DNA of 64,000 bases from an uncultured Pirellulaceae bacterium (GTDB taxonomy: Bacteria > Planctomycetota > Planctomycetia > Pirellulales > Pirellulaceae). This document shows, one piece after another, positions 29,994 through 50,371 of this stretch. Both the position numbers and the translations under genes were made by a program. Below the pieces are notes generated by a model, which saw nothing but the letters and a program-made list of their open reading frames with translations, ran no database searches and was not told the DNA's origin. The number at the start of each line of letters is the position of its first letter. Within the stretch, counting starts at the first letter, position 1. The DNA lies in assembly GCA_964446085.1 (NCBI GenBank), contig CAYUNP010000002.1, positions 3,266 through 67,265 of the forward strand, given 5' to 3'.

Positions 29994-30214
29994 GGTGTTG
30001 GCAATCGTTGGTAACAGATTTGAGTTTGCATAAAATTGCGACAACGAAGATCGCAGACCCACATTGTAAGGCAAATTGAAAGAAATAAGTTAACCACTGC
30101 TGCGTCTTTCAGAACTACCAATTCCGAAAAGTGTCGCAGTTCCACCCTAGATGCATCCTGAGAGTCAAAATTCCCACATTCAACTGAAAGAAACAATCTG
30201 AGCGTCCGACTCGG

Positions 30215-31870
30215 TTACTTCGACACAGCAAGGTCCAATTCGCGGTCCATGTTTTCGTTGTCAGAAGCAACGGTACTGGAGAAAATGGAATCAAAGCCGC
30301 CGTGTCGAACTATCGACTCGGCACTTTTCCTGAACGGTGGATCAATTGCCAAACCTGATTGAGCCACAATCTCACAACAAAGTGTCTCCAATTGTGCCAG
30401 ATTGATTCCAAATCGTTTGTTGAATTGTCCGTTGGTCATTTGATCTTTAAGCCGTTGATTGGATTCCCGAATCAATGGCATTTGTGAAATGTCGACCGTT
30501 CCACCGGCCTCGACATCTTTAGTCACCTCGTGCCACTTGCGAAAGAAATCCTGCATGAAATGGTTGAGCTTGCCGAGTTTCGTCAGCCGTCTCAGGTTTC
30601 GCATGTACATCGTTTGATGGCACATCCGATCGTGCATGAATATGAAACCGGTAATCGACCAGTAAACCATATAGTCCCAAAGAATCTTCGTTGGCATCAC
30701 GGTTGGATTACCGAACATTCGATACTGATCCTGATATGCCGTCGCCGTTCCGTAGTAGAACCGCTTAAAGATTCGATCGTACGAAAACGCGCGTATGCGA
30801 ATCCCCTGCCCTGACAAATCCCGGTGAATCAGGTCAGTCAAGAAAGTGTTCGCAAAACCGATGAAGTCGCTTCCGGGAGAGTAAAACGGATCGTGAAAGA
30901 AACCGGCCTCTCCTGTGATCCCCCATCGCTGCGACGAAAACACCTGATCGCACTCGACAGCGTAATGTTTGATCGCGCGAAAATCCTGTAGCTCATCAAT
31001 GTTCTCACGAACCGCCAATGCGCATTGCGGCTCGTGCTTTTCCAACCACGCCAATGCTTTGTCAAAGGAATTGAAATCGGAAAGTGAGTGAAACTCTTCT
31101 GCCCCCACGATGCCCATACTCGTCGAACCCGAAGCCAGAGGGATCAACCAAACCCAGTACCCCTGCCCCATCAGGTGATTGGTGCTGTACCACCGCGCCG
31201 TTTTACCGGAGTGCCCTTCGTGCCACTGGTTATCGCTGGACCAATCGTCGATCTTGATATGCTTCTTGAACCGAAACCAGGCCGCATTGCCAATGTGCGG
31301 TGATTCTTTTTGCATGTTCAACTGTCGCTTGATAAACGCCCGCCTGCCACTCGCATCAACTACCCAACGGGATTCAACCGATTTGGGATTTCGATCCACC
31401 TCAAAACTAACCGTGTGCTTTTTGCCTCGATCATCAAGCTCAACGTTTTTGATTTTCGCTCGCTGAACAAAATCAATCCCTCGCTCCAGACAAAGGTCAG
31501 CCAGATAGTTTTCGAATCGACCACGATCAAGCTGATAACTGGGACACGGCGCATAACGCTTCCCGCCAAGCTCCAATCGGTCTTCGATGCGCGAGTTGTC
31601 ACCGGCAGGAAAGAAGAATCTGAGGCCGAGTTTGGGCAACTGTTCGTCGAGAATATGTTGCTTCAGCCCCAGGACTTCGCCGAAATAATAGGCTGCCACC
31701 TCGACAGTCGACTCTCCGACCTTGAATGCCGCTTCGGGAACCGGATGCTCGCGCTTTTCCAACACGGTAATCGAAGCATTGGGCAACTTCTGTCGGCACT
31801 GAAGCGCAAACGTCAGTCCCGCAAGGCCGCCTCCAAGCACTGTGATGTCGCTGGTTTGATTCGTTTGCAT
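30215..31870 (-). CDS. Flavin-dependent halogenase-like enzyme (copy A)
   Basis: GGGLAG FAD motif, [18 protein letters not shown] (Lys in the catalytic-Lys position), DASGR, YWVWLIP (WxWxIP), [17 protein letters not shown] 31870 preferred. Confidence 0.75.
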
Positions 31871-31986
31871 TTTTGATTTCCGCTTTAACGTGGTCGCAAA
31901 TTTTATGCTCAAAAGTCTGTAGTGCCGCCTTTGGGCGGAATGCATCAGCAGCGATTTCCGCTAAAGCCGACACCAGGAACCAGTTC

Positions 31987-33612
31987 CTAAATACTCAACA
32001 ATTCAAACACATGTTCCAAATGATGTTCTGTCTCTCCACGAGCCGGGATGTCAATACTGACCTCCGGCTGAGTCTGTTGAACGCGCTGCGTAATTTCGTA
32101 CATCAGCTCGCGAATCAAATCCACATTCTCCTGAAAGCGAACCTTCAACGCCGCATCGTCGAGCTCTTCACGAAGCTCCGCATTGAGCCGTGTCATGATT
32201 TCGATCTGGCTCTGATCGACAAACGCTCCATTCGCATTGACCGTCGGATCGGCGTCGTACCATTTCCGAAAGAAATCCTGCATCTTCAAATTCATGTCCC
32301 GAATCTCTTCAACGCCTTTGGACTGAGACTGAATGAAGCTGACGTCGGTTAACTTGCCACGGAAATACAACAGCGCCGGGAAGCCCCAGTAAACTGCATA
32401 GTCCCATACAAACTTGAGCGCCATGATGCGCGGGTTGCCAAAGAGTGGGTATTGATCGCGATAGGTGATCAAATTGTTTTGAAACAGAGTCAAAAACACA
32501 CTTTGCAATGTCGGTGCCAGATGTTGGATCGATCGGCCTGCCAGATCTTCTTCGATCAGTTTGCCAACCATCGTGTTGCCGATCGCGATGAAGTCACTAC
32601 CGGGTGAATAAAACGGATCCAGCAAAGCGGCCGCTTCACCGACCAGCCCCCAGCGGTCAGCTGAAAAAACCTGTTTTGCTCCACGCGAAATTTTCCTGAC
32701 CGCCAAAAAATCCTGCATCCTGTCGACGTGCGGTCGAATACTGTCAGCACACTCCGGCTCGTGCTGCTCCAACCACGCAATTGATTTTTCAAAGCTGTTG
32801 ATATCTCGCAGCGAGTGGATGCTTGGATCGGCCACGATTCCAATACTGGTCGAACCAGTCGACAGCGGAATGATCCAAACCCAATAACCTTCGCCCATCA
32901 GGTGGTTGGTACTCAGCCAACGGCGCGGAACCTTACCCGTCAACGATTGCCAGTTGGCATCGTCACACCACTTGTCGATCTGGATCCCCGCATCAATACG
33001 AAACCAGACGGCGTTGATGTCGTGATTCAGATCTTCTTCGAGATTGAGTTTTCGTTTCAAAAAGCTGGCTCGCCCACTGGCATCGACAACCCAGCGAGCG
33101 TTGATCGAATCTTCGGAACCATCTTTCAAAAACGTCAAACTGTGTCCGCGCGAATCCGGTTCCTCTGTGGCAGAAACCAGATCGACGCTACGAATTCGTG
33201 AACCCGAAATAATCGTCGCGCCCATCTCGATGGCTGTTTCGGCCAGATAGTTCTCCAACCGCCCACGATCCACCTGATAGCTGGGAGCTGAGAAAAAAGT
33301 ACTCCCGCCGACTTCTGTTCCTTCAGCCAGTGACTGGCAAGCATCCTTGAAGAAGAATCGCAATCCGAATTTCGGCAACTGCTGATCGGTCAGATGTTTT
33401 TTGAGCTGCAGCTCTTCCCCAAAATAATGCGCACCAATCTCGACGGTTGACTCACCAACTTTGTGAGTCGTTTCAGAAACCGGAAACTGACGTTTTTCAA
33501 TCACGGCAATCCGGGTCTCGGGCCGCTTCATCAGCAACTGTCTGGCCAGCGTTAGTCCAGCCAGACCGCCACCCAGTATTGCGACATCGTATTGGTTATT
33601 GTTGGAAATCAT
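31987..33612 (-). CDS. Flavin-dependent halogenase-like enzyme (copy B)
   Basis: [50 protein letters not shown]; collinear paralog of copy A. Confidence 0.75.
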   Translation of the reverse strand: MISNNNQYDVAILGGGLAGLTLARQLLMKRPETRIAVIEKRQFPVSETTHKVGESTVEIGAHYFGEELQLKKHLTDQQLPKFGLRFFFKDACQSLAEGTEVGGSTFFSAPSYQVDRGRLENYLAETAIEMGATIISGSRIRSVDLVSATEEPDSRGHSLTFLKDGSEDSINARWVVDASGRASFLKRKLNLEEDLNHDINAVWFRIDAGIQIDKWCDDANWQSLTGKVPRRWLSTNHLMGEGYWVWIIPLSTGSTSIGIVADPSIHSLRDINSFEKSIAWLEQHEPECADSIRPHVDRMQDFLAVRKISRGAKQVFSADRWGLVGEAAALLDPFYSPGSDFIAIGNTMVGKLIEEDLAGRSIQHLAPTLQSVFLTLFQNNLITYRDQYPLFGNPRIMALKFVWDYAVYWGFPALLYFRGKLTDVSFIQSQSKGVEEIRDMNLKMQDFFRKWYDADPTVNANGAFVDQSQIEIMTRLNAELREELDDAALKVRFQENVDLIRELMYEITQRVQQTQPEVSIDIPARGETEHHLEHVFELLSI

Positions 33613-33702: not shown

Positions 33703-36700
33703 CTATGCCATTTCCTCTTTCCTGACTTCAACCTGCACAAACTCCTCGTCCTTAACATGATCATCAATCTCTGTAATCCAATAGCGTTTTTTCTGGAACG
33801 GATAAGTCGGCAAACTGAGGCGATTTCGTTCCCAATACTGGCTCAAAGCTGCAAAGCATGGATTTACACCGCCCGCATACAACTTCCCAAGGGCACTCAG
33901 CAGCGACGTTGAAGCATCCTGATTGGAACTCAGACTTTTCAAACGAGTCGCACCAAATTCAAGTGTCGCGATATCGCCCCAATCGCCCACACCAAGCTCC
34001 AACACAAAATCGCAATCCATCCCACTCAACGTCGCAACCGACTCCGGCAGCATTGGCTTGGCGCTACAATGCTCCCGCCAGTAGCTACCGCCGAGCGACT
34101 TGTGAACTGGAACGACATTCCCACCGATGCTGCAGATCAACGACATGTTGGGTGGGTAATAGTTAAACTGGTCTGCGAAAGCCTCAAACGCATTCAGAGA
34201 TTCTTCGTTCGGCGTTACGTCACCACCAGAAACAACTTTGCCGCGTTCAAGAACCAGCAACAAAGCATCGTTGAAGCAAAGACAGCCAGCCATACAAGCC
34301 GCAACATATTGTCCAACGCCAAATCCAAGCACCACATCTGGTTCAACGCCCCACTGAAGCCATATCTTTGCCAACCCTGCCTGCAACACAAACTGTTTAA
34401 CATCCGCAGGCACCGCCGATTCCGAATCAGCTCCTTCCGCACCAAGCCACGCTTGCAGTTGGAAAACTGATTGCTGAGTCTGCGACAAATGCGACATCAA
34501 CCGTTGATCAAACTCTCCGATCATTTCACGAAATACAGGCTCGGTGGCAAACAGATCGTGAGCAAAACTGTCATCAGCCGAAAGCATTCCAGCAAAAAAC
34601 CAGCCAACCCTGGGCGCTGCTTTGCAAACACCTTGAGCAATGCCTTCGAAGTGATGATGTGCTCCATTTCCTGAACCGTTTGCTCCGGCGGCACGTAGGC
34701 CATTGAGCGTCGAGGCAGAGTTCCCACCAACAAGTTCATTCAGTTTCTGTATCGCATCTTCAGGCGACTTGATTGTCAAAGCAACACGATGCTCAAAATG
34801 GCGACGACCACTGGCGGCGGTGTGACATACATCGGCCAAACGGATCGCGGAATTTTGCTCGATGAATTCACGATAATCCGACGTTAACTGCGAAAGGGCA
34901 TTTTCGTTTCGCGCACTCAACACCAACAACTCCGCCGTACGCCCTGGTTGATCGCTCGATCGAACGTCTGAACCATCGCCAGGCAAACTGGTATCCATCT
35001 TCACTGCATCGTCGGGTGCAGAACTCAACACAATATGCGCGTTGGTTCCAACCAACCCCAACGCCGTAATCCCGGCTCTTCGCTCTTCGACTTCCGGCCA
35101 AGGCGTAGGCTCGGTCACCATTTTCACCGGCATCCGCTGCCACGGAATGTGTGGACTCGGTTTGTCAAAATGAGCCTGCGGCGGAATCACGCCTTTGTGA
35201 ATCGACAACACCGTCTTGATTAAACCCGAGACACCGCCAGCGGCTTCCAGGTGACTGATATTGGCTTTCACTGAACCAACCAACAATGGCTGATCCGGCT
35301 TTCGCCCTTTCCCGTAGACACCCGACGCGGCCCCCAGCTCCATTGGATCGCCGTATTCGGTTCCAGTTCCATGGGCTTCGAGATACTGAACTTGCGACGG
35401 CGCGATTCCCGCGTCCTTCAAAGCATCACTGATCACGCGTGTCTGAGCCTTGCCGCTGGGCGACGTAATCCCGCCACTGAAACCGTTATGAACGACGGCT
35501 CCACCGCGAACGACCGCCATGATCCGATCGCCATCACGTTGGGCATCGCCAAGCCGTTTCAAAACGACGACTCCGCAACCTTCGCCGCGACCGAATCCAT
35601 TTGCGTCCGCCGAAAACGACTTGCAGCGACCCTCGGGTGAAAGCAAACCTGCCTTGGACATTAACAATGAATTGACCGGCGCAAGAATCGCGTTGACTCC
35701 GCCTGCCAATGCCATATTGCAGTTTCCATCCTGCAGGCTTCGCACTGCCTGAAACAGCGCAACCAACGAACTACTGCTGGCTGTATCAACTGCGATGCTC
35801 GGCCCTTCGAAACCAAACACATAACTGATTCGTCCTACGCCCGCACTGTGCGAAAGCCCGGCTCCCTGAAACTGTTTAACAACGTCGATGTCGTCCATCG
35901 TCGGAATGAAAGCATAGTCCTGCCCCATGATTCCCATGAACACGCCGACGTTGGAATCCGTCAGCGGGTGCGGTGAGATCCCGGCATCCTCCATCGCCCG
36001 GTAACTGTTCTCCAGCAGCATACGGTGTTGCGGGTCAATCCAGCACGCTTCCTGATCAGAGATGTTAAAGAACGCCGCATCGAAATTCGCAATGTCATCG
36101 AGAAAGCCACCTTCGCGTGTGTACATTTTGCCCGGCTCGCGATCGGCACTGTAAAACCGATCCATATCCCAGCGATCGGCAGGAATCTCACACACCGAAT
36201 CAACACCGTTGATCAGGTTATCCCAAAACTCGTCGACATTGTTTGCACCAGGAAACCGGCAGCTCATGCCGACGATTGCCACATCTTCGCGTACTCGCGC
36301 CGCTTGCTGGAGCGGCTGATCGGTGACGGCTGCTACAGCCGGAGTTCCAGCCTCTGCCTGGTTGGCTACCAACTCCAGAACAAAATCGGTGATCGCATCG
36401 ATCGTCGGATAGTCAAACAACATCGTCGGACCGACTTCGAAATCATCACCCAGCATTTGCTGAAGCTCCGTTCCGAATTCGACTGCCATCAACGAGTCCA
36501 ATCCCATTTCGATCAGTGGTCGATCCGTTTCCGGTGCATCGGGTGTCGAAAGGATTCCCTGCAACGAATCGCGAATCGTACCCAGCAGCAATTCTCTTTG
36601 AGCCGGCCCACGAAGCCGTTTCAACCGACCGACCAACTCCGAATCGCCTTTGGACACCTTTCGTTTTCCAGCAACGAGACCATCAAGCATCGCAGGCGAC

Positions 36701-39700
36701 TCTCCGCCGAGTCCCATTCTCATTCGTTGCCACTGGACATCCATGACGGTCGCCTGGACAACGTCGTCGACAAGCATTCTTTCCATCGCTGAGTGAGCTT
36801 CGGAAATCGTAAGTGGCGTGATGCCGGACAAAGCCAGTCGCTTGATGATTCGCTCGTCGTCTGCCATTCCTTCAGTCCACGGCCCCCAGTTGATGCTCGT
36901 CGCAGGAAGGCCAAGTGCGCGTCGTTGCCAGGCCAACCCGTCAAGGAATGCGTTGGCGGTTGCGTAATTGCTTTGCCCGGGTGATCCGAGAACCGATGCG
37001 GCAGAAGAGTAGAGGACGAAGAAGTCCAGTTCGAGAGTTTTCGTGAACTCGTGCAGCAAGCTGGCTCCACTGACTTTGGGCGCGAGCACCTTTTCAAATC
37101 GCTCCCACGATTGATCTCCAATCAAACCGTCGTCCAAAACTCCCGCCGCGTGAATGACTCCCGAAAGCGGTTTGAGATCATCACCAAAACGGGACAACAT
37201 TTTTTCAACATCATCGCGTGAAGACATATCAGCCGAATGAACGATAACTTTACAGCCTGCCTCTTTGATCGTGTCGAGAAAACATTGCGTCGATTCATCG
37301 GGAGAGCGTCTTGAAACCAGCACAACCTCCGTCGCCCCGTTTTCAGCAAGCCATTTCGCGGCTTGTCGACCCAGCATTCCCAAGCCACCCGTGACCAGAA
37401 AGCTACCTTCGGCGTTGACTTCAAATTCTGTTTTGCTTTTCCTGTTGACCGAAGTCCGTTTCATCCGCGGAACCATAAACTGGCCGTCACGAACGACTAA
37501 CTGATTGTCCCGCGTTTCGGTGAGCAAAATTTCCAGAACCGCAGTCGATGTTTCCGGGTTTTCAATCTCGCCAGAACCAACGTCGATCAAGCGGCAACGA
37601 AACTCCGGCTGTTCGGCTCCGATGACGCGTCCGAGTCCCCAATACTGTGTTTGATTGGGATCAACAGCTTCTGAATCATCGCTGGCGATCGCATCCGTCG
37701 TGATCAGTTGCAACCCACACTCAATTCGCCGCTGACCACGAACCGCGAGCGTCGCAGTCAGATTCAACAGTCCGGTACAGTTTTCTCTGGTTCGCGATTC
37801 CTGGCTGGCAGTTGTAAACCAGGCGATGCCCTGCGGCGCGAAAGGTTGGTCATCCGTAGACAATTGATCGAAAAGCGCACTCCAGTTCTCAGGCGACTCA
37901 CTGCACATTGAAAACCGGTTTTCGGACTCCTGTTTCATTCCGCTCTGGCTTCCGATCTCCAATTCAACAACGCGATGTCCTTTTGTTTCCAGTTCCGCCA
38001 CAACACGTGGAGCAACGCTGTCGTTTTGGCCGCGAATGATCAACCAATCTCTGTTCTCCGCACTGGCCGCGGGCAGGCGCAAGCGTTCCCAATTCAATTC
38101 GAAAATCAAACGTTCCGATCCGCTGCCACTCATTTGCCGCAGCGCCGCGATGCTGACCTGCTGAACCTTTAGTTCTTCAATCTCCGCAACGACCTGCCCT
38201 GCTTCATTGAACAAAACCAAATCCGCCGTTCGAATTTTGCCCTCATTCTGATTCCAGCGAGCGTGACACCAGACTTCATTTTCGATCGTCTGCAAACAAC
38301 GAACTCGCCCGATTCCAACGGGCAAAAACAAATGACCGTCGTCTTCTCGCAGCAGTCCGACGGCCAGCGAGTGCAATGCACCGTCGAGCAACGTCGGAGC
38401 AATCGTAAACCCGCGAACGTCGCCATTGGTTTTAAGCTGCGTGAGGACTTCGGTTTCCGAATACCGCAATGAATCAATCGTTTGGAACTTGGGACCGTAG
38501 TTCAGACCAAGCTGCGACATTTTCTGATAAAAGTCCGCGGGCGTTGCCGACTCAGTACATGCGGCTTCCAACGCGGCGCGGTCGATCAGATCGAGCGGTG
38601 AATTCTCACTTGAAACGATCTTGCCGGTGAAGTTCCGAGTCCAACTCCTGGCATTGGCGGGCGAAGAAAAGACTTCGATCGTTTGCTGGTCTTCCGTTTT
38701 GCGCACAATCGTTTGCAGGCTCGTTCGCGACGTTGGGCGAAGTGGCTGCTCAAAAACGATGTCGGCGACCTGATCAGAGCCAGCAGCGGCCAACGCCATC
38801 TCAACGTAAGCTGCACCGGGCAAAACAACGTTGCCCATGACTTCGTGATCGGGCAACCACGGCGGACTGTCAGGCTCCACAAAACTTTCATATCTCGATT
38901 CGTTTTCGATTCCCGCAAGTGAAACGGCTCCGCCAAGCAACGGATGAGCCGTGTGATACTCGGCGTGAAAGGCTCGCGGTTTGTCCGGCCCCCAAAACCT
39001 TCGTCGCTCAAACGGATACGTCGGTAGCAAAATCCGACGAGGAGTTTGCCCGCTCTGGTCGTCGTGAATCGCTGCGAAGTCCGGTGTCGATCCTTGAACG
39101 TAAAGCTGCCCGACCGCTTTCAAAATTGATTCGACATCGTCGGCATCTTTCTGCAGGCAACTAATCAGCGATCCAGCAGGGCGCTTCCAGTTTGCAGTCG
39201 CCATGCGAGTCAAAACCGATTGCGGGCCAAGCTCAAGAATGACTTCGCAACCGAGTTCAGCAGCGGCTTCGATACCCGTGGAGAAACGGACGGCTTCACG
39301 GATATGACGCGCCCAATATTCTCCGTCGAGCGTTTGATCGACCGTTAACGGTTTACCGGAAACGTTGCAGATCAGCGGCAGTTGGGCCGGACTGAATGTG
39401 ATGCCGTCAGCGAACTTTTGAAACGGCTCAAGTGCCGGCTCCATCAGCGACGAGTGAAATGCATGCGACGTCTGCAACAGTTTGGTGCGAACGCTCTGTT
39501 CTGAAAATCGGGATTCCAATTCGCCGATCGCCAACTCGGTGCCGCTGACAACGACATGCGTTCCATTTAGCGCGGCAAGGGAAACATCGGCAGCGGTTTC
39601 AATTTGTTTGGTGACGATATCGAGCGGAGCAAAGACAGCCATCATTTTTCCGCCAGCAGGAAGCTCGCCAATCAGCCGGCCGCGTTCACTGATCAAACGC

Positions 39701-41700
39701 AAGCCGTCTTCCCATGACATGATGCCAGCAACACAGGCCGCTGCGTATTGTCCAACGCTATGGCCAAGCACTACATCGGGCTTGAGCTCCCAGTGTTGCA
39801 ACAGTTGGGCGAGTCCCATTTGCACGGCGAAGATCGCGGGCTGCGTCCAGTGTGTGTTGTGGATCCTGGTTTCGTTTTCGAACAGGACTTCGGTAAGCGA
39901 CTCCTGTCGCAGCGGTTGCAACTGGGCTTCGCAGCGGTCAATCGCGTCCCGGAAAACAGGTTGAGATTCGTAAAGGGACCTGGCCATGCCAACGTACTGC
40001 GAACCCTGACCGGTAAATTGCCAGGCGACTTTCGGGGCTCGACGACCGCTTCCGATAAAGGAGTTACCAGACGTCGTTTCTCGTGAAATCTTTTTTAAAC
40101 GCTGGATTGCTTCGTTGTGATCTTTGGCAACCACAGCGGCGCGGTGTTCAAAGTGACTTCTACCAGTGCCGGATGTGAATGCGACATCACGGAGCTTCAG
40201 CGACTGATCCGATGTCAACGCGTCCGCGTATTCTTCGGCCAACGTTTGCACAACGGATTCGCTTTTCCCGCTCAGTACGATCAACTGTGATTCCTGCGAG
40301 TTATTCGGAATTCGCGTAGCGGTAACATCAGGCGCCTCGATCACTACATGCGCGTTCGTGCCGCTCATGCCAAACGCACTGACACCGGCAATCCTGCGAC
40401 CGGATTCGGGCCAGTCGGTAGCGTCAGTGAGGACTTTGACGGGAATTTTGTCCCACGGAATATGTGGGTTGGGTGTTTCAAAGTTCAGCTGCCCCGGGAT
40501 CTTGTCGTTTTGAATCGCAAGCAGAACTTTGATCAACCCAGCCATTCCCGAAGCAGCTTCGAGGTGGCCGATGTTGGTTTTGACTGAGCCAACGAGTAAT
40601 GGATTTTCTGGCGAACGTTCCTGAGTCAGCGCCGCAGCAGCGGCCTGGATTTCAACCGGATCACCAAGCTCGGTTCCCGTTCCATGGGCTTCGAGATAGG
40701 CGACGTCGGCGGGTTCAACACCGGCTCGCTCAAGGGCCTGGCGGATAACTTTTGTTTGTGATTTTGGATTGGGAGCAGTCAGCCCACTGCTGAATCCGTT
40801 ATGCCCGACGGCTGAGCCGCGAATGATTCCCAGAATCGGATCGCCGTTGGCTTGCGCGTCCGATAGTCGCCGCAATGTCACGACACCGCAACCTTCGCCA
40901 CGCAGGTACCCATCGGCAGCTGCATCAAACGCACGAGACTGACCAGTGGGCGAGAGGGCTTTTAATTTGCAAGTCAAAATGTTGGTCGTCGGTGAACAGA
41001 TCGCGTTGACACCACCGACAAGTGCCTGATCGCAATCACGTCTCTGTAAACTCTGGATCGCCAGGTGCAGTGCCACCAACGATGAAGAACAGGCTGTGTC
41101 GACCGCGACGCTGGGCCCTTGTAGGCCAAGGTAATACGCCAGCCTTCCACAAAGGAAACTTCCCGCGGCACCGGTTGCGATGTATGGGTTGAGGTTCAGA
41201 AACGAATCGCTGGCTTCGTTTTGATAATCGTTATGCATCCAGCCGACAAAGACGCCTGTGGATTCACCGATTGATTCGGGCTTCCAGCCAGCTCGCTCGA
41301 TCGCTTCCCAACCAACTTCCATCAGCAACCGCTGTTGTGGATCGACCCAGGTCGCTTCGCGTGGTGAGATGCCGAAGAATTCAGGATCCATCTGATCGAT
41401 GTTTTCCAGAAACACGCCGCGACGAGCATACATCTTTCCGGGCACTTCAGGGTCATCATCGTGGAAGGCATCCAGGTCCCAACGGTCGTCAGGAATGTCA
41501 CCAACTTCGTCGGTTTGATCGAGTAACGATTGCCAGAACGCTTCAGGGGTGTTGGAGTGGCGGGGAAAACGACAGGCCATCGACACGATCGCGATCGGTT
41601 CGCCTGAGTTGGATTGCGCGTCCGCAAGTTGCTGCTTCAACTCACGGATCTTGAGCAGAGCCTGTTTGTTCGGAGACAGGTTTTGGGAATCAGTTGTCAT
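33703..41700 (-). CDS. Type I modular PKS: docking-KS-AT(malonyl)-DH-KR-ACP-KS(Cys->Ser)-truncated inactive AT
   Basis: KS1 DTACSSS/HGTGT/NIGH; AT1 GHSVG and HAFH; DH HEVMGNVVLP and DGALH; KR GGLGMLG, LDD, YATAN; ACP GLDSL; KS2 DTASSSS/HGTGT/NISH; AT2 GFGVG lacking Ser and the small subdomain. No terminal ACP or TE. Confidence 0.93.
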   Translation of the reverse strand: MTTDSQNLSPNKQALLKIRELKQQLADAQSNSGEPIAIVSMACRFPRHSNTPEAFWQSLLDQTDEVGDIPDDRWDLDAFHDDDPEVPGKMYARRGVFLENIDQMDPEFFGISPREATWVDPQQRLLMEVGWEAIERAGWKPESIGESTGVFVGWMHNDYQNEASDSFLNLNPYIATGAAGSFLCGRLAYYLGLQGPSVAVDTACSSSLVALHLAIQSLQRRDCDQALVGGVNAICSPTTNILTCKLKALSPTGQSRAFDAAADGYLRGEGCGVVTLRRLSDAQANGDPILGIIRGSAVGHNGFSSGLTAPNPKSQTKVIRQALERAGVEPADVAYLEAHGTGTELGDPVEIQAAAAALTQERSPENPLLVGSVKTNIGHLEAASGMAGLIKVLLAIQNDKIPGQLNFETPNPHIPWDKIPVKVLTDATDWPESGRRIAGVSAFGMSGTNAHVVIEAPDVTATRIPNNSQESQLIVLSGKSESVVQTLAEEYADALTSDQSLKLRDVAFTSGTGRSHFEHRAAVVAKDHNEAIQRLKKISRETTSGNSFIGSGRRAPKVAWQFTGQGSQYVGMARSLYESQPVFRDAIDRCEAQLQPLRQESLTEVLFENETRIHNTHWTQPAIFAVQMGLAQLLQHWELKPDVVLGHSVGQYAAACVAGIMSWEDGLRLISERGRLIGELPAGGKMMAVFAPLDIVTKQIETAADVSLAALNGTHVVVSGTELAIGELESRFSEQSVRTKLLQTSHAFHSSLMEPALEPFQKFADGITFSPAQLPLICNVSGKPLTVDQTLDGEYWARHIREAVRFSTGIEAAAELGCEVILELGPQSVLTRMATANWKRPAGSLISCLQKDADDVESILKAVGQLYVQGSTPDFAAIHDDQSGQTPRRILLPTYPFERRRFWGPDKPRAFHAEYHTAHPLLGGAVSLAGIENESRYESFVEPDSPPWLPDHEVMGNVVLPGAAYVEMALAAAGSDQVADIVFEQPLRPTSRTSLQTIVRKTEDQQTIEVFSSPANARSWTRNFTGKIVSSENSPLDLIDRAALEAACTESATPADFYQKMSQLGLNYGPKFQTIDSLRYSETEVLTQLKTNGDVRGFTIAPTLLDGALHSLAVGLLREDDGHLFLPVGIGRVRCLQTIENEVWCHARWNQNEGKIRTADLVLFNEAGQVVAEIEELKVQQVSIAALRQMSGSGSERLIFELNWERLRLPAASAENRDWLIIRGQNDSVAPRVVAELETKGHRVVELEIGSQSGMKQESENRFSMCSESPENWSALFDQLSTDDQPFAPQGIAWFTTASQESRTRENCTGLLNLTATLAVRGQRRIECGLQLITTDAIASDDSEAVDPNQTQYWGLGRVIGAEQPEFRCRLIDVGSGEIENPETSTAVLEILLTETRDNQLVVRDGQFMVPRMKRTSVNRKSKTEFEVNAEGSFLVTGGLGMLGRQAAKWLAENGATEVVLVSRRSPDESTQCFLDTIKEAGCKVIVHSADMSSRDDVEKMLSRFGDDLKPLSGVIHAAGVLDDGLIGDQSWERFEKVLAPKVSGASLLHEFTKTLELDFFVLYSSAASVLGSPGQSNYATANAFLDGLAWQRRALGLPATSINWGPWTEGMADDERIIKRLALSGITPLTISEAHSAMERMLVDDVVQATVMDVQWQRMRMGLGGESPAMLDGLVAGKRKVSKGDSELVGRLKRLRGPAQRELLLGTIRDSLQGILSTPDAPETDRPLIEMGLDSLMAVEFGTELQQMLGDDFEVGPTMLFDYPTIDAITDFVLELVANQAEAGTPAVAAVTDQPLQQAARVREDVAIVGMSCRFPGANNVDEFWDNLINGVDSVCEIPADRWDMDRFYSADREPGKMYTREGGFLDDIANFDAAFFNISDQEACWIDPQHRMLLENSYRAMEDAGISPHPLTDSNVGVFMGIMGQDYAFIPTMDDIDVVKQFQGAGLSHSAGVGRISYVFGFEGPSIAVDTASSSSLVALFQAVRSLQDGNCNMALAGGVNAILAPVNSLLMSKAGLLSPEGRCKSFSADANGFGRGEGCGVVVLKRLGDAQRDGDRIMAVVRGGAVVHNGFSGGITSPSGKAQTRVISDALKDAGIAPSQVQYLEAHGTGTEYGDPMELGAASGVYGKGRKPDQPLLVGSVKANISHLEAAGGVSGLIKTVLSIHKGVIPPQAHFDKPSPHIPWQRMPVKMVTEPTPWPEVEERRAGITALGLVGTNAHIVLSSAPDDAVKMDTSLPGDGSDVRSSDQPGRTAELLVLSARNENALSQLTSDYREFIEQNSAIRLADVCHTAASGRRHFEHRVALTIKSPEDAIQKLNELVGGNSASTLNGLRAAGANGSGNGAHHHFEGIAQGVCKAAPRVGWFFAGMLSADDSFAHDLFATEPVFREMIGEFDQRLMSHLSQTQQSVFQLQAWLGAEGADSESAVPADVKQFVLQAGLAKIWLQWGVEPDVVLGFGVGQYVAACMAGCLCFNDALLLVLERGKVVSGGDVTPNEESLNAFEAFADQFNYYPPNMSLICSIGGNVVPVHKSLGGSYWREHCSAKPMLPESVATLSGMDCDFVLELGVGDWGDIATLEFGATRLKSLSSNQDASTSLLSALGKLYAGGVNPCFAALSQYWERNRLSLPTYPFQKKRYWITEIDDHVKDEEFVQVEVRKEEMA

Positions 41701-41802: not shown

Positions 41803-43833
41803 TTATGCTTCCAGTTCTTTCATCAACTCTTCCAGTGCCTGCTCTTCTGACATTGAGGCGACTTCCTGTCCCGTTGTAGAATTTGGTTGCGAAACATCGG
41901 TTAGTTTTTGGAACGCGTTGCCATGTGGTTGAAGTTGTGTCTTGCTCTTGTCGGCTGCTTTATCGGCGCTGACCGTCTTCAATAAAAAATCGGCCAGGTC
42001 ACTGAGTCGCGGATAGTCGAAAACGAGAGTCGCGGGAACTTCGTTTTCCGGTCCAAGTTCGACTTGAATCTGCGAACTCATTTCCACGACCATCAATGAA
42101 TCGAATCCCGCGTCCAGGAATCGGGTATCGGATTCAGGTCGTTCTTCTGATCCGGTGATGGACTGGACCAAGCCCTGCACGAAATTGAGTGAAACTTTTG
42201 GCTGGTCGGCAGCGAAAGCTGACTGAAGTTGTTTGCGAAGCGTAGGAGGGCGAAGTTTTGCAGAAGATACAACTGCTGAATCAGCCGACGATTCCTCACT
42301 TTGTTCAGACACGCCGAGGTTAACTCCTGCGATGTCCATCTCGCGAAGATTTGTCTTGAGGATTTTGCCGGATGGATTACGCGGCAGTTCGTCGATCACG
42401 ACAAACTCGCGAGGCACTTTGTAGTTGGCAAGATTTTCTGAAGCGAGCTTTTGCACGCTGGCATTCAATTGATCATCGGCCTCTTTCCCAGAAGCACCTG
42501 CGACCAGAAACGCGACAACTTTCTCGCCAAAGACATCATCTGGAATTCCAACAACCGCACACTGCGAAACGTCGGAGTGATCGAGCAGGACGCGTTCGAC
42601 TTCTGCCGGATAGACTTTCTGCCCACCAACGGAAATCATGTCTTTGACTCGGTCGACGATATAAAAAAAACCGGTTTCGTCGATACGGCCAATGTCTCCC
42701 GAGTGAAACCAACCGCCTTTGATTGCTGCAGAGGTGTCGTCGGGGCGATTCCAATAACCAAGCATTACGTTTGGACCACGAATCGCGATCTCGCCCAGTT
42801 CGCCTGGCGCGCAAGTCGCACCAGTTTCGGTGTCAACAATTTTCATCTCCACACAGTCAATCGGCGTCCCAATCGAACCGGGGATGAATTTATTCCGATG
42901 GTTGTAACTCGCAAACGGCGAAGTCTCAGTCAGTCCATAGCCTTCGTGGATCGGCAATCCAAACTTTTCCTGCCAACGTTGACCGACCTGAATCGGCAAT
43001 GTTGCGGCGGCCGAGAAACAATAGGTAACCGTGCTCAATTCGGCTGGCTGAAAACTGTCCTGGAATAGCTGGAACATCATCGGCACGCCGTAAAGCTGGG
43101 TGACGCTTTCTTCGGCGATCAACTGCTTGGCTTCTGATGGATCAAACTTTCGCTGCAAAACCAGCGTCGCTCCAACATTAAGAGCCGAATTCAGGAGCGC
43201 GTTTTGACCAAAGCAGTGAAACAACGGCACGGCCAACAAAATGCGATCCTTCGATTGCATGTTGCACAAATGATTGAACGCATGAACATTGGAGCGAACG
43301 TTCATGTGCGAAAGCGTCGCGCCTTTGGCGAATCCCGTTGTGCCTGATGTGTAAAGGATCAACGCGGGATCATCAGGCGCGGCGTCGATCCATTTCTCCG
43401 ACGCAGGCGACGGTTGCGCCAGCGGTTCACCATTGCAAAGGTCGCCCGGATCCGAAGACGCATAACGGTTGGCGACGCAAGCGGGCAAATCAGATTTCAG
43501 TTTGTCCAGTGTCTCGGCCAACGCGACAAAGATCCTGGCTTGGCAATCTTCGACCAGAAACGAAACTTCCGACGCCGCAAGTCGAGTGCTGATGGAAACT
43601 GCGATGGCTCCAATTCTCAGCGTCGCATAATACCAGACAACAAACGCTGGGACGTTAGGCATCATGATCGCAACTCGATCGCCTTGTGCCACGCCTGCCT
43701 CGGCTAACAATCCAGCAACCGAACGCGACATTGAATCGAGTTCTGCGAAAGTAAACCGACGGCCTTCGAATACAATCGCCTCCTTGTCAGGAAACAGTTT
43801 GGCCGTAGCGGTTAGGTGTTCGCAGATGTTCAT
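41803..43833 (-). CDS. Acyl/aryl-AMP (CoA-ligase-type) adenylation domain fused to ACP; PKS loading module
   Basis: YTSGTTGFAKG, PLFHCFG, GYGLTE, GWFHSGDIG and PSGKILK, then ACP GFDSL and an acidic C-terminal docking helix EEQALEELMKELEA. Confidence 0.9.
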   Translation of the reverse strand: MNICEHLTATAKLFPDKEAIVFEGRRFTFAELDSMSRSVAGLLAEAGVAQGDRVAIMMPNVPAFVVWYYATLRIGAIAVSISTRLAASEVSFLVEDCQARIFVALAETLDKLKSDLPACVANRYASSDPGDLCNGEPLAQPSPASEKWIDAAPDDPALILYTSGTTGFAKGATLSHMNVRSNVHAFNHLCNMQSKDRILLAVPLFHCFGQNALLNSALNVGATLVLQRKFDPSEAKQLIAEESVTQLYGVPMMFQLFQDSFQPAELSTVTYCFSAAATLPIQVGQRWQEKFGLPIHEGYGLTETSPFASYNHRNKFIPGSIGTPIDCVEMKIVDTETGATCAPGELGEIAIRGPNVMLGYWNRPDDTSAAIKGGWFHSGDIGRIDETGFFYIVDRVKDMISVGGQKVYPAEVERVLLDHSDVSQCAVVGIPDDVFGEKVVAFLVAGASGKEADDQLNASVQKLASENLANYKVPREFVVIDELPRNPSGKILKTNLREMDIAGVNLGVSEQSEESSADSAVVSSAKLRPPTLRKQLQSAFAADQPKVSLNFVQGLVQSITGSEERPESDTRFLDAGFDSLMVVEMSSQIQVELGPENEVPATLVFDYPRLSDLADFLLKTVSADKAADKSKTQLQPHGNAFQKLTDVSQPNSTTGQEVASMSEEQALEELMKELEA

Positions 43834-43978: not shown

Positions 43979-45643
43979 TTATTGAGTTCCTTGCAAAAAA
44001 CTGTGTTCAAACGAATCAAGAATTGGCTTGACGGCTTCAACCACCGCGCCCTCATCCCGAATATTCTGGTGCAGGGCTTCTATATCCTGTTCCAGCCAAC
44101 GATCGGAATCGTCGAACAGGAATGGCCTGTCCTGACCAGGCGAAGAATCAAGAACTTCGTAAACCGCCGAGTAAAGTGGCCGGGCCTGGTCGCCAATCAC
44201 TTTCCTTCCGTCGTAATGTCCGTAGCTGGATTTAGCCCGCATATCGAGAGCCTGAACTCCAAAGATCAACGCGATGGCCGAATATTGCTGGAACAGTTCG
44301 ACTGACTTCCAGGCCAAATTCGCCGCGCCCCAACTCAGCCCATTCACGTTTTGATTGAACTGTTCGGCGTGAGTCGGGAAATGTTCGACCAGCGGATTGG
44401 CGTTGTAGGTCAACATGGGCATAATCGAGTTGCCTGTGATCTGTAACCCCTTGAGCCCCATGTTGTAGGAAAGCGATTCGTTGCCGCGAAGCGACGGAGT
44501 CAGCCCGCCACTGAATTCGGGCGTGACCAGCGACGCAATTTGCACATCGAGATGCTTGGCCATCAGTCCGATGAACCGGCGCAGATCGTCCATCGCGATG
44601 CCAACGTACTGGCCGAGAAAATTTCCACTTTGATAAAACTGCCCCGAAGTCGGATCAATCATCGGGTTATCGGAAACAGAATTCATCTCCGTCTCGACGA
44701 CCCGATTGATGCGTGCAATACCTTCGACGATCGGGCCCATGTATTGAGGCAGGCATCGCAGCGAATAGCGATCCTGGACTTTGATCGGTTTACCGTTGGT
44801 GTGCTCTCGGCCTTCGGCAAGCCAACGTTTTGAGATCTTTGCTGTCCAGATTTGACCGGGGTGCGGTTTGTGTTGATGAACGAAATCGTCAAACGGGCTT
44901 TCATTGACCAGCAGTGCACGTAGCATCAACGACTGTGTTCCAACCGTCAGCGCCATCAAGCTGCGGGCTTCGTAGCTTGCATTGGCTGCGATCGCAGAAG
45001 AGAACGACGTCCCGTTGATGATCGCAAGACCTTCCTTGGGCTGCAATTGAAGTGGCTTCAATCCAAGTTCACGAAGCGCTTCAGCTCCATCGACAACTCG
45101 ATCGCCCATCTGGACTTTGACATGCCCGATGCCGGTGATGGCTCGCGCGATTGCTGACAATGGAACCAGATCGCCGCTGGCACCGATCGAACCGAGCTCA
45201 CGTACGACCGGAGTGGCGTCGGCCTTAAAGAATCGAACCAGGCGATCGATGATCTCCATTCGCACACCCGAGCAACCACGCAGCAAAACGTTGGCTCGCA
45301 AAATCATTGCTGCCCGGACATGACGAGAATCAATTGGCGATCCGGCTGAAGCTGCCAGAAAGGAAAGCAAGTTGTCCTGCGACGCCGCCGCGTGTGAGGA
45401 AGAAATTTCTTCGCCGGCCATTGCTCCAAAGCCAGTCGTAACGCCATAGATTTTTTCGCAGGAAGAAACCGCCTGGGCCACGGTACGTGAAGAAGCCGCG
45501 ATGCGTTCACGAAGAGACTCGTCGTCTTTGATCGAAATTGCCAATTCTTTTTTGGCGACCGCAACAATCGTCTGGATCGATTCCTTGTTCCCGGCGAGCG
45601 ACAGCTCTTTGCCAGAAACAACATTTACTTTTTCGGTCAACAT
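43979..45643 (-). CDS. pal: MIO-dependent aromatic amino acid ammonia-lyase, probably phenylalanine ammonia-lyase
   Basis: IYGVTTGFG, GSIGASGDL (MIO-forming ASG), QDRYSLRCLPQ, SDNP, GNFLGQYVG, HAEQFNQN. The selectivity site reads SFL (Phe-Leu, PAL type). Confidence 0.85.
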   Translation of the reverse strand: MLTEKVNVVSGKELSLAGNKESIQTIVAVAKKELAISIKDDESLRERIAASSRTVAQAVSSCEKIYGVTTGFGAMAGEEISSSHAAASQDNLLSFLAASAGSPIDSRHVRAAMILRANVLLRGCSGVRMEIIDRLVRFFKADATPVVRELGSIGASGDLVPLSAIARAITGIGHVKVQMGDRVVDGAEALRELGLKPLQLQPKEGLAIINGTSFSSAIAANASYEARSLMALTVGTQSLMLRALLVNESPFDDFVHQHKPHPGQIWTAKISKRWLAEGREHTNGKPIKVQDRYSLRCLPQYMGPIVEGIARINRVVETEMNSVSDNPMIDPTSGQFYQSGNFLGQYVGIAMDDLRRFIGLMAKHLDVQIASLVTPEFSGGLTPSLRGNESLSYNMGLKGLQITGNSIMPMLTYNANPLVEHFPTHAEQFNQNVNGLSWGAANLAWKSVELFQQYSAIALIFGVQALDMRAKSSYGHYDGRKVIGDQARPLYSAVYEVLDSSPGQDRPFLFDDSDRWLEQDIEALHQNIRDEGAVVEAVKPILDSFEHSFLQGTQ

Positions 45644-45728: not shown

Positions 45729-48700
45729 TCACGCCTCCTGAATGTGACCTGGGCTCACGTTTTGGGCCGTCTCAAAGTTATCCAGCTCCCGTTTTCGATG
45801 CAGCAGCAAATACAATGCGGGCACGAAATAGAGTGCCAGAAACGTAGCCCCGCCAACGCCTCCAGCGATCGTAATCGCGAGCGGCGGCCAGAATTTTCCG
45901 CCGCCAAGTATCAGCGGAGTGAACCCAACGATCGTCGTCAATGTGGTGGCGATGATATGTCGAGTGCAGCCGGAGACCACGCCGACGAGCGATTCCGAGT
46001 CTCCGCAGCGAGCCGAATCATTGCTGCGGATGGCTGCCAGAACCACGATCGAATCGTTGATCGCCACGCCAACCAAACCCATCGTCCCGACGATCGACAT
46101 GAATCCAAATGGAAAACCGAAAACCGAAAGTGCCAACGGTCCCAGGCCAATCGACAGCCCTCCCACGACCGAAACAATAATGGCACAGCGAAACGAATGA
46201 AAGGATGCGACCAGCGTTAACAACATCAGCGCAAACAACACAATCGCATTGGCGATCAAACTGTTAACCGCGTTGGATCGCTGCTCCGTTTCTCCACCCA
46301 GTTCCAGGTCGTAACCAGCTGGCATTGCGAAATCCGCATTTGCCAATCGCTGCCTGAAATCATCCAGAACCGTCGAAGGCAAAACGCCTGCCCGAATGTA
46401 AGCTTTGACTTCGTTCGCACGTCGTCCATCAATTCGAACCACAGCACCAACATCTGACTTGAGCTCAAAGTTTGCCAGGCTGGCCACTGTCGGGTTGGCC
46501 GATGTCGTGGGAGGTCGTCCCGTGGGAGGTCCTGCACCACGCGGCGGCGGTCGACGTCCAGGCGAAGTCAACTGCAATGCCGAAAGCAGGTCCAGTTTTG
46601 AGTCACCGTCGAAATCAAGTTTGACCACTATCGGAAGTTCTTCATTGCCGTCAAAGATCTCTCCGGCAGGTGCACTTTCCAAAGTCGTGTAAAGTTGAGC
46701 TGCGATCTGGGTCTCGGTAAGCCCTGATTTTTTCGTAAGCACTTTGTCAAAATCCAGAGTCAACTTGGGTATCGTTTCTTCCAAATCCGATCGTGTATGA
46801 ATCACGTTGGGCGTTTGACTCAACAGCAGCCGCAATTGCGACCCAATCTGTTGTAGCGTTGCCAGGTCCGGCCCGACCACACGGACTTCAATCGGAGCAT
46901 CAAAAGGTGGGCCCTGCTCCAGTTGCCGAACAATCACGCGACTATCAAGTACGCTTGCGTCGATAGCTTCCTGCAGATCGTTGACGACATCGTCGGTCGC
47001 CAGGCCATCGCCAACATCCACAATCGCCTGAGCATAAAACGCCGTGCCTCTACGGCGTGGCACAACGTTGTAGTAGAACGTCGGTGCACTGCCGCCCAGG
47101 AACCAGTGCTGGCGTTTCACATTCTCGTTTTCGGAAACCACTTTTCGAATTGAATCAACCGATGAGCGGACAGCCGAAATGGAATCACGAGCTGACCGTT
47201 CGACTTCGATTTGAATCTGATCCCGATCCGATCGGGGAAAGAACTGCTGAGGCAATTTCCGGGCGACCGCAAACCCGACGATCGGCAATACGATTCCAAG
47301 CAGGATTCCAACCAGCGGGAACCGAAAAACCCAACTCAACGACCTTTCGTAGATCTCTTGCAGCACGCCGATCTTTATTCCGTAGCTGACCAGCCCACGT
47401 TGGTGTGGGTTAATATTGAGCAATGCATTGACCGGCGGAATCAGCGTCATCGCCAGCACAAAGGAAGCGCAAATCGCCAGAATGACACTCACGGCAATCG
47501 AACCTACGAACTCACCCGAGGGGCCCGGCAAAGTCGCAATCGGCAGAAATGCCAACGCGGTTGTCAACGTTGAACCAAACAATGGCATGCCGAGATGACG
47601 CACCGAACCTGTGATGGACTGCTGTGGAGATTCACCATTGACGATCCGTGTTCGAACTTCTTCCACGATCACGATCGCATTATCGATCAGCAGCCCGAGC
47701 GCCACGATCAATCCTGTCACTGACATTTGATGAATCGGAATCGAAAGGGCTCGCATGCCCGTGATCACCATCAGTGCCGACAGGGGCAAAGCCATTCCAA
47801 CCACCAGCATGCTGCGCCACCCCATCAACAGCAGAACCACCAGCGCCACTGCAGCGGTACCGACACCGAGGTTCTGCACCAGTGTCAACATTCGCTGATT
47901 GATGTGTCTCTGTTGCGAAAACAGAATCCGGGCTTCGGCTTCTTCGGAGTAATCCAGGTTGAAACTTTCGATCACTGATTCCAATCCAGTCGCCCATCGG
48001 TCAATCTGCTGGTCGTCGTTGGCGAACGCTCCAAGCACAATCGCACGTTGGCCATCGACCAGCGCCAGATTGCCAGCGGGGTCCAGTAACCGTTTCTCAA
48101 TATTGGCGATCTGCGAGAGCGCGATTGACTGCCCACTGCTACCGTGCGAAACCAGTACGTTGGCGATCCGGTTGCTGGGCAAGTCGGGTTTCTCAATATC
48201 GACAAGCGTTGCAGCTCCGTCGTTGCGCAGGTGGCCGCCGGGTTGTTTTGAGTTTTCCTGCCTGATTTGAGAAGCGATCGCAGCCAGCGAAGTATTCAAC
48301 GAAGCCAGAGTTGCAGGATCAAGTTCGGCGACGAGTTGTTCGCCCGGATCTCCAAACACATCGACTTTCCCGGTTCCCGAAATTTCAAGAATCTGATTGC
48401 GAAGTTGCTTTGCCAGGCGACGTGAAAGCGAAACGTCATCAGGGTTACTGCTGGACTTGATCGCAATGATTGCCGAATAGGCTTTCAGTGGAAACACCTC
48501 CAACTGCGGATCAAAACAGGACTCCGGCAAGCGACCACTGACGTCCGTGATGCGACTTCGCAGCAGCGTCCAAACCCGTTCAACATCGTCGACTTCATCC
48601 TTGAGTTCGACGACGATATTGGAGATACCCGTTCGGCAGTTGGATCGAACCTGCTTGATTTCAGCAACACTGGTCAGCAACTCCTCAATCGGAATCGTGA

Positions 48701-48884
48701 CCAAAGCTTCGACCTGACTGGCGTCGGCACCCGGGAAAACGGTGCTGATAACGGCAACCCGTTTGCCAAGAATGGGATCTTCAAGCCGCGGCATCACCGT
48801 CAGCGACGTCAAACCGGCAACCACAATCGTGCCGATCAAAAGCAACAGGATCCGCGGATTCTTGTACAGAAACGTTGCGATCAC
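45729..48884 (-). CDS. RND efflux permease (AcrB-like)
   Basis: [28 protein letters not shown], 12-TM pattern, 1051 aa. GTG start overlaps the MFP stop. Confidence 0.92.
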
Positions 48885-50112: not shown

Positions 50113-50371
50113 AAAAATTCTGCGTCGTGAAAGCAGGATGCGAACCGGGTAATCAGGTTCGGCAGGCCGTCATCTTAGTTTAAAAACAGCTGAAATTTCA
50201 AGGCTTTGCGACAAAGTTAGCAGTCTTGGGGCTCGGAAGATGTGGGGTAGGGCCGGTCAGTGAAAATATGCTAACGTGCGATCGAGCCAATACTGGTCGA
50301 ACAAAATCGGCTGGGATGCGTATTGGCTCAGCCCGCAGGATGCGGACTCGAACTTTCCATGGACGGAACCG

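Follow-up and report, generated by a model that had tools for sequence, protein, structure and literature searches.

The polyketide synthase (PKS) gene at 33703-41700 (-) of contig CAYUNP010000002.1, from an uncultured Pirellulaceae bacterium of a marine metagenome assembly, encodes a protein that ends in a ketosynthase with serine in place of the catalytic cysteine (KS2), followed by the remnant of an acyltransferase (AT2). Positions are those of the window, that is, the whole 64-kb stretch (64,000 nucleotides) that was analysed. The KS2-AT2 ending is strictly conserved in dozens of related genomes, where it always stands beside two halogenase-like flavoenzymes, which shows it to be a working part of the synthase and not a decaying relic. 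We tentatively read it as a chain off-loading domain that has no acyl carrier protein (ACP), does not elongate, and would act like CalA3 of the calcimycin PKS with a Ser nucleophile. The gene belongs to a cassette lying entirely on the minus strand with short gaps, in the order of transcription: HlyD-type fusion protein, RND transporter, aromatic amino acid ammonia-lyase of the phenylalanine ammonia-lyase (PAL) type, adenylation-ACP (A-ACP) protein, PKS, and the flavoproteins Hal1 and Hal2.

Full-text searches of the literature found no description of this cassette. The combination of a Ser nucleophile with an intact His-His-Lys set, a gutted AT, the lack of an ACP, placement at the end of the protein and an obligate pair of divergent halogenase-like enzymes is new to the literature searched. 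Termination of this PKS is not explained by the usual release domains, and non-elongating ketosynthases are known in few forms only. The cassette is common in environmental Planctomycetota, a phylum with very few known natural products, and it is probably the signature of a family of halogenated metabolites that is abundant, uncharacterised and often primed by a phenylpropanoid.

Active site of KS2 and structure of AT2

Domains of the PKS were assigned with Pfam and by reading motifs in the translation, which is a single uninterrupted frame of 2665 aa organised as KS1-AT1-DH-KR-ACP-KS2(Ser)-AT2(remnant)-tail (DH, dehydratase; KR, ketoreductase). The active site of KS1 is AVDTACSSSLVAL, with the Cys codon TGT at 41091-41089. 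In KS2 the nucleophile region AVDTASSSSLVAL (aa 1970-1982) contains the motif DTASSSS, and the nucleophile, Ser1975, is encoded by AGC at 35778-35776. Both His motifs of KS2 are present, EAHGTGTEY at aa 2108-2116 and NISHLEAA at aa 2147-2154. Judged by its motifs, AT1 is the only working acyltransferase of the protein. AT2 reads GFGVGQ (aa 2459-2464; 34309-34326) against GHSVGQ in AT1, and has FAGMLS at the place of the AT1 GQGSQ motif. Pfam detected one PP-binding domain in the PKS (aa 1708-1774), none after KS2, and no thioesterase (TE) domain. The Pfam scan also covered about 27 open reading frames (ORFs) of at least 200 aa besides the PKS, and found among them no other PKS part, ACP, TE or phosphopantetheinyl transferase.

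The KS2-AT2 region was aligned with the CurL KS-AT didomain (4MZ0). Query residues 4-691 correspond to chain residues 38-710 and query residues 699-842 to chain residues 790-936, leaving about 80 CurL residues (711-789) without counterpart in AT2. Comparison with AT1 identifies the missing stretch as the small subdomain with its HAFH motif. Because the KS part of an AlphaFold2 (AF2) model of KS2-AT2 is of moderate quality (mean predicted local distance difference test, pLDDT, 70.8), the model served to assess the AT remnant and the general fold alone. The AT2 remnant is the best-defined part of this model (pLDDT 85-95), and the best structural matches are cis-AT KS-AT didomains (CurL, TM 0.72), not trans-AT KS domains with a flanking subdomain.

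An earlier note on this DNA, made from its letters alone, had described an intact frame, TGT in KS1 and AGC in the DTASSSS motif of KS2, retention of both KS2 His motifs, an AT2 with GFGVG and no small subdomain, and the absence of a second ACP and of a TE. All of this was borne out, the truncation of AT2 by the 4MZ0 alignment together with the AT1 comparison, and the missing ACP and TE by Pfam for the PKS and the window ORFs scanned. The note also had the protein end at the post-AT linker. The LPTYPFQKKRYW linker is indeed there, but the exact end is not, as 24 poorly conserved residues come after LPTYPFQKKRYW.

To characterise the KS2 active site, we used a set of 82 canonical KS domains, in which 151 columns are at least 90% conserved. 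KS2 keeps the canonical residue in 135 of these 151 columns. Eleven deviations are invariant and specific to KS2, KS1 being canonical at all 11 positions. They comprise C1975S at the nucleophile, G2149S just before the second catalytic His, three changes in the SFGxSGTN loop beside the active site (S2212T, F2214L and S2217V), and T1947A, Q1892H, L1894M, L2078I, I2120M and A2155G. On this sequence evidence KS2 has a remodelled active site and not a decayed one. As a further argument, the FabF gating residue Asp265 was considered and rejected: the equivalent Asp of NQDG is Asn in KS1 and KS2 alike, which makes the position uninformative.

Conservation of the ending in related loci

A genome scan yielded 36 related loci from Pirellulaceae, Lacipirellulaceae, Bythopirellula, Fuerstiella and other Planctomycetota metagenome-assembled genomes (MAGs). 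The window PKS and those of 23 loci form the set of full-length orthologs (n=24). The KS2 nucleophile is Ser in 24/24 and Cys in none of them, within the motif DTASSSS in 23 and DTASSSA in 1; HGTGT is found in 24/24 and NISH in 23/24. The Ser codon is AGC in 20 orthologs and AGT in 4, one base from the KS1 Cys codons. AT2 always reads GxGxGQ, and its former His position varies freely. A second, more distant subfamily, of which five members were read, has IDSASSSS in KS2 and GDGLGQ in AT2. Its PKS ends alike, with YPFDRKRYWITDV and a short tail, and is followed by two genes resembling flavin-dependent halogenases (FDHs), with no PAL or A-ACP gene upstream. The earlier note had named homologs with Cys and further modules as the mark of a relic. 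The opposite was found, since the 24 full-length orthologs and the 5 members of the second subfamily all keep Ser, the gutted AT and the same stop point of the protein.

Synonymous sites are saturated (dS >2, computable for about half of the pairs), and the comparison between domains is therefore limited to nonsynonymous divergence (dN) and identity (Table 1). KS2 is constrained as tightly as the condensing KS1, with a median dN of 0.156 vs 0.139 and 47% vs 54% of invariant columns. AT2 is maintained only as a fold and drifts like a linker. The ACP-KS2 linker, 24 aa long, is short and variable (15% identity), and the C-terminal tail shows 41% identity with 36% gaps across orthologs.

Table 1. 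Divergence of the PKS domains among full-length orthologs
Region	Mean pairwise identity	Median dN
KS1	0.81	0.139
KS2	0.79	0.156
ACP	0.72	0.213
KR	0.67	0.266
AT1	0.58	0.36
DH	0.52	0.453
AT2	0.37	0.70
Inter-domain linkers (KS-AT linkers, psi-KR region)	0.31-0.38	0.67-0.83

The genes surrounding the PKS are conserved to different degrees. A Hal1 ortholog directly follows the PKS in 29/29 loci reaching past the PKS stop, and Hal2 is present in the 28 loci (of 28) that extend further past Hal1; no gene is conserved downstream of Hal2 across the related loci. On the other side, PAL and A-ACP genes lie directly upstream of the PKS in most of the 36 loci. Two loci of the first subfamily are, like the second subfamily, without upstream PAL and A-ACP. 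In L018, L034, L040 and L041, the PKS and both flavoenzyme genes are preceded by unrelated genes (RlmA-like methyltransferase, small toxin-like genes, or succinyl-CoA ligase) in place of PAL/A-ACP, so that either the loader is encoded elsewhere or another starter is used. The N-terminal coil of the PKS, LSPxKQALLKIRELKQQLA, is kept even in the PAL-less loci, which makes a loader elsewhere in these genomes possible. As the two flavoproteins and the PKS are kept together even where PAL and the loader are missing, they represent the invariant unit. The tie to the flavoenzymes suggested in the earlier note is supported by this strict co-occurrence.

Comparison with known ketosynthases

By analogy, KS2-AT2 would work most like CalA3 of the calcimycin PKS. 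This module lacks an ACP; its KS frees the chain through amidation or hydrolysis, its remaining domains play a structural part, and a TE is absent from the cluster (PMC10006239). The C197A mutant of CalA3 hydrolyses the thioester 4.5-fold above wild type (PMC10006239). Common to both systems are a KS placed at the end of the line without an ACP of its own, companion domains that are catalytically dead and structural, the lack of a TE in the cluster and the retention of the KS His, His and Lys. They differ in that CalA3 is a separate KS-AT-DH-KR protein with an intact Cys-His-His triad and performs amide release with 3-hydroxyanthranilate, whereas KS2 is fused after the last ACP, is followed by a truncated AT only, has a Ser nucleophile in every member read and is without a known co-substrate.

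Cys-to-Ser replacement also occurs in NysA, in PimS0 and in the stand-alone KS enzymes of beta-branching, and Ser-type loading KS domains decarboxylate malonyl-ACP. KS2 shares with the KS(Ser)/KSQ loading didomains (NysA, PimS0, GfsA type) and with the stand-alone beta-branching KS0 the replacement of Cys and the retention of both His. These domains cannot condense, and they are either free-standing or placed where a pathway begins. KSQ domains decarboxylate malonyl-ACP in loading modules (PMC11350588), and the condensation-incompetent stand-alone KS enzymes do so in beta-branching cassettes (PMC11522927). Unlike the loading didomains, KS2-AT2 is not N-terminal but forms the last pair of the protein, after KS1-AT1-DH-KR-ACP, and has neither a functional AT nor its own ACP. 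Unlike the KS0 of beta-branching cassettes, which is encoded together with a donor ACP, a 3-hydroxy-3-methylglutaryl-CoA (HMG-CoA) synthase (HMGS) homolog and ECH1/ECH2, KS2 is fused in a megasynthase, and no HMGS, ECH1/ECH2 or donor ACP gene was detected by Pfam in the window ORFs scanned.

In trans-AT systems, KS0 domains keep the Cys and lose the His of HGTGT. The resemblance to these lies in a non-elongating KS followed by a degenerate AT region. KS2-AT2 is distinguished from them by the loss of Cys with retention of His, by a whole AT large subdomain and by model matches of the cis-AT type; no trans-AT gene was found by Pfam among the larger ORFs of the window. KS2-AT2 thus departs in at least one defining feature from each known class compared, namely loading KS(Ser)/KSQ, HMGS-cassette KS0, trans-AT KS0 and CalA3. 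Two of these precedents, CalA3 and the Cys-to-Ser KS of beta-branching, are not named in the earlier note.

Proposed chain off-loading and competing explanations

In the off-loading reading, as the domain content suggests, cinnamate would be made by the PAL and loaded by the A-ACP protein. KS1, AT1, the B-type KR and the DH would elongate it, with malonate as extender, into an ACP-bound thioester of the 5-phenylpenta-2,4-dienoyl type; going by the KR and DH motifs a single extension round would give the 5-phenylpenta-2,4-dienoyl thioester, and more than one round is possible. Both halogenase-like flavoproteins would modify the portion built by the PKS, probably with the chain still on its carrier. 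KS2 would then accept the acyl chain from the single ACP like any downstream KS. With Ser as nucleophile, the outcome would be either an acyl-enzyme of the oxoester type or a non-covalent complex. Neither could undergo Claisen condensation, and water activated by His, or a different nucleophile, would resolve it. What is left of the AT would, with the post-AT linker, be a mere structural collar of KS2, and the RND/HlyD pump encoded next door would probably export the product.

Several features argue for this reading. KS2 is in a chain-accepting position, since it comes right after the sole ACP via a short variable linker. An off-loading function is needed because no release domain of the TE, reductase or condensation type is encoded in the conserved cassette and nothing is conserved past Hal2; genes for a reductase or condensation-type release were found neither in the conserved cassette nor in the window ORFs scanned. 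The C-terminal tail is unconserved and so offers no docking element for a further module. AT2 has lost exactly what an off-loading domain can spare: the catalytic Ser, the GQGSQ motif and the small subdomain. As a Ser oxoester or bound complex cannot condense with malonyl-ACP, selection against Cys in KS2 would be explained. Transfer from the acyl thioester to Ser should be energetically downhill, yielding an ester poor for condensation and suited to hydrolysis.

Other considerations weigh against off-loading. We know of no FabF-type Ser-KS shown to be acylated or to release a chain. Cys-to-Ser mutants of ketosynthases from fatty acid synthases (FAS) and PKS acylate poorly and keep or gain decarboxylase activity, and the two natural classes of Ser-KS known to us are both tied to malonyl-ACP decarboxylation. 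The kept His-His-Lys set fits decarboxylation as well as release, and a discrete hydrolase, partner protein or partner module could be encoded outside the 64-kb window. Balancing these points, we regard off-loading by KS2-AT2 as plausible, if somewhat short of probable. A narrower version, in which Ser1975 carries the completed chain as an oxoester (or the chain rests beside this residue), the Hal pair halogenates it there or on the ACP, and His-activated water frees it, appears unlikely. If Ser1975 is such an acyl-enzyme station, KS2 would take the place of a thioesterase within the synthase itself and represent a new logic of PKS termination, widespread in uncultured Planctomycetota. Once known, the role of a Ser-KS at a chain terminus would be a tool for PKS engineering (TE-free release, on-line tailoring) and would gauge how far a KS active site can be repurposed.

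The main rival, which we consider rather doubtful, is that KS2 decarboxylates malonyl-ACP or halomalonyl-ACP loaded by AT1, giving an acetyl or haloacetyl unit or enolate. The unit could serve as a primer, useful in loci without PAL and loader, or as the nucleophile or substrate of halogenase-linked chemistry. Loss of Cys with retention of both His and Lys is the residue pattern of decarboxylating KS domains, and malonyl-ACP decarboxylation is what the condensation-incompetent stand-alone KS and the KSQ domains do. The adjacent loader is missing at four loci, and the nearest NCBIfam model of the flavoenzymes, though far below cutoff, is CmlS, the halogenase of dichloroacetyl formation. However, KS2 lacks the working AT and ACP of its own that KSQ and KS(Ser) loading didomains have, it would compete with KS1 for malonyl-ACP and so waste extender units, and it is equally conserved where a dedicated cinnamate loader is present. 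Pfam found no HMG-CoA synthase, ECH or discrete ACP gene nearby among the window ORFs scanned, and decarboxylation leaves chain release unexplained.

It is improbable that KS2 is a catalytically silent structural partner, either a dimerisation or chain-length-factor-like mate of KS1 or a platform docking the flavoenzymes to the ACP-bound chain. A KS-like partner without Cys follows the logic of the type II and polyunsaturated fatty acid (PUFA) chain-length factors; moreover, the two FDH-like genes are inherited jointly with the PKS, and the AT remnant is clearly structural only. Scaffolds, however, seldom keep catalytic residues, yet His-His-Lys and Ser are invariant here, the share of invariant columns in KS2 approaches that of KS1, and the KS2-specific changes include active-site motifs.

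We give still less weight to KS2 as a second condensing enzyme with a Ser nucleophile, sharing AT1 and the single ACP with KS1 for a chain-length-specific extra elongation. The canonical positions that it keeps include all decarboxylation and condensation residues, and DpsC, a priming enzyme of the KAS III type, reportedly works with a Ser nucleophile. On the other hand, to our knowledge no FabF-type KS condenses from an oxoester acyl-enzyme, the oxyanion/gating loop of KS2 is altered at positions 94-100% conserved in the 82 canonical KS domains, and release would again be left unexplained.

Finally, a functionless relic of a lost second module is effectively excluded. In its favour, AT2 is dead and truncated, and neither an ACP nor any later domain is left. 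Against it stand a KS2 dN as low as that of KS1 among lineages whose synonymous sites are saturated, an invariant Ser, and a stop position shared by two subfamilies and more than 30 species. The earlier note had proposed a retained function, in release, decarboxylation or substrate presentation, linked to the flavoenzymes; function and link are supported, and the three roles are not separable by sequence tools.

The flavoproteins Hal1 and Hal2

Hal1 and Hal2 are FAD proteins with weak Pfam matches to Trp_halogenase, and Hal2 is 41-46% identical to the Hal1 orthologs of other loci. The motifs GGGLAG, LPK[FL]GLRFFF (with its Lys), WVW[LIM]IP and DPFYSPG are invariant in 27 Hal1 and 22 Hal2 orthologs. 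Their sequence neighbours are PltA, Bmp2, Mpy16, ChlB4, CndH and CmlS, the last being also the nearest NCBIfam model. A model of Hal1 (predicted TM score, pTM, 0.83) gave 36 best Foldseek matches with 13-22% identity, all of them flavin-dependent halogenases except the unannotated flavoprotein 3NIX; it has an extra helical region at residues 338-538. Hal1 and Hal2 resemble the carrier-protein-dependent FDHs PltA, Bmp2, Mpy16, CndH and ChlB4, as well as CmlS, in fold, GxGxxG motif, Lys and WxWxIP. They differ from known FDHs by an identity of only 14-22%, a helical C-terminal addition of about 190 aa and their occurrence as an obligate pair beside a PKS. In motifs and modelled fold both qualify as flavin-dependent halogenases, and we class them as putative halogenases. 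Their target is more likely in the PKS-built part of the molecule, since the phenyl ring of cinnamate is unactivated and the pair is kept in PAL-less loci.

Hal1/Hal2 form a distinct and very widespread halogenase-like clade, with at least 120 clusters (90% identity) of at least 72% identity to Hal1, all environmental (marine and other MAGs, metagenomes). The two are always paired (L001-L034, L040, L041) and are more conserved (about 70-88% identity) than the PKS. The sole published brominated planctomycete metabolite, 3,5-dibromo-p-anisic acid, was considered as a precedent and rejected: it is made by a chorismate lyase and one Bmp5-like brominase without PKS, a different system. Alichondrichlorin, which has a 2-chloro-3-hydroxy acid end and no assigned gene cluster, offers a chemical analogy for alpha-halogenation on a PKS, as a lead only.

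Lyase, loader and starter

The lyase has the motifs GASGD, with the ASG triad of the 4-methylideneimidazole-5-one (MIO) group, and NLLSFLAASAG, with a Phe-Leu pair at the selectivity position that we take to be a selectivity switch. Among PDB entries it matches 9EQ5 best (E 9e-187), which is the PAL of Planctomyces brasiliensis; cyanobacterial PALs rank next, and the scores of aminomutases are far lower. Within the A-ACP protein, the adenylation domain is closest to feruloyl-CoA, 4-coumarate-CoA and fatty-acyl ligases. Given these two affinities, the starter is most likely cinnamate. A beta-tyrosine logic of the C-1027 type (aminomutase, A-PCP, halogenase, hydroxylase) was rejected, the lyase being PAL-like and the adenylation domain of the aryl/fatty-acid ligase type. 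Among the 120 matches listed in both the Hal1 and the PAL search there was no distant relative with a characterised cluster and no cultured carrier, all of them being close environmental orthologs.

At 12 highly conserved positions KS1 shows invariant differences from canonical KS domains (e.g. GHNG for NQDG, SRAF for CKxF), and it carries the family-specific stretch GWMHNDYQNEAS; these peculiarities may reflect a cinnamoyl starter. The A-ACP protein ends in an acidic tail past its ACP (41803-42000 (-); …EEQALEELMKELEA), and the N-terminus of the PKS (41601-41700 (-)) has a conserved coiled-coil-like stretch, LSPNKQALLKIRELKQQLA. Going by their sequences, the two look like a docking pair.

Gene neighbourhood

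The features of the locus are listed in Table 2. In 18 related loci the RND gene occupies the equivalent position, with 44-82% identity, and export therefore appears to be part of the cassette. Promoter and terminator scans between the PKS and flavoenzyme genes gave nothing beyond chance. In a search for expression, the sequence was present in just 4 marine metagenome DNA runs and 0 RNA runs.

Table 2. Features of the cassette and domains of the PKS, in order of transcription
Feature	Position	Strand	Description
HlyD	48881..49945	(-)	HlyD-type membrane fusion protein; 4-base overlap with RND start
RND	45729..48884	(-)	RND (AcrB-type) transporter; directly upstream of PAL gene
Lyase	43979..45643	(-)	MIO aromatic amino acid ammonia-lyase, PAL type (ASG; Phe-Leu selectivity pair)
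A-ACP	41803..43833	(-)	Adenylation-ACP loading protein (aryl/fatty acid ligase type); C-terminal tail beyond ACP
PKS	33703..41700	(-)	Type I PKS, 2665 aa
KS1	40321..41601	(-)	Canonical condensing KS (DTACSSS, HGTGT, NIGH)
AT1	39061..40035	(-)	Intact (GQGSQ, GHSVG, HAFH)
DH	38131..38955	(-)	HxxxGxxxxP and DxxxH motifs, read from translation
KR	36865..37413	(-)	GGxGxxG, Ser and Tyr regions, LDD (B-type) motif
ACP	36361..36600	(-)	Sole ACP of the PKS (GLDSLMAVEF)
KS2	35005..36288	(-)	Ser-type ketosynthase (DTASSSS; both His and Lys kept; TALGLVGTNAH loop)
Ser1975 codon	35776..35778	(-)	AGC; Ser replaces catalytic Cys
KS2-to-AT2 linker	34537..35004	(-)	Linker domain
AT2 remnant	33826..34536	(-)	Large subdomain only; GFGVG; no GQGSQ, small subdomain or HAFH
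Post-AT linker	33778..33825	(-)	Contains LPTYPFQKKRYW (33778-33813; aa 2630-2641)
C-terminal tail	33703..33777	(-)	Acidic, 24 aa, poorly conserved; with stop codon
Hal1	31987..33612	(-)	Flavin-dependent-halogenase-like; ~190-aa helical C-terminal extension
Hal2	30215..31945	(-)	Hal1 paralog, same motifs

Directly downstream of Hal2 lies an alginate lyase gene (28785-30074 (-)) that is not conserved in related loci; it fits an alga-associated marine lifestyle and is probably unrelated to the cassette. Three large ORFs have no Pfam match: 24701-27169 (-) of 822 aa, 54398-56278 (+) of 626 aa and 50276-51448 (+) of 390 aa. The ORF at 59576-60727 (+) weakly matches the archaeo-eukaryotic primase domain of the TOTE conflict system (E 4.6e-9) and is on that basis a possible defence or mobile-element gene. 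The housekeeping genes for the large and small subunits of glutamate synthase, at 18150-24274 (-), place the cassette in an ordinary chromosomal context.

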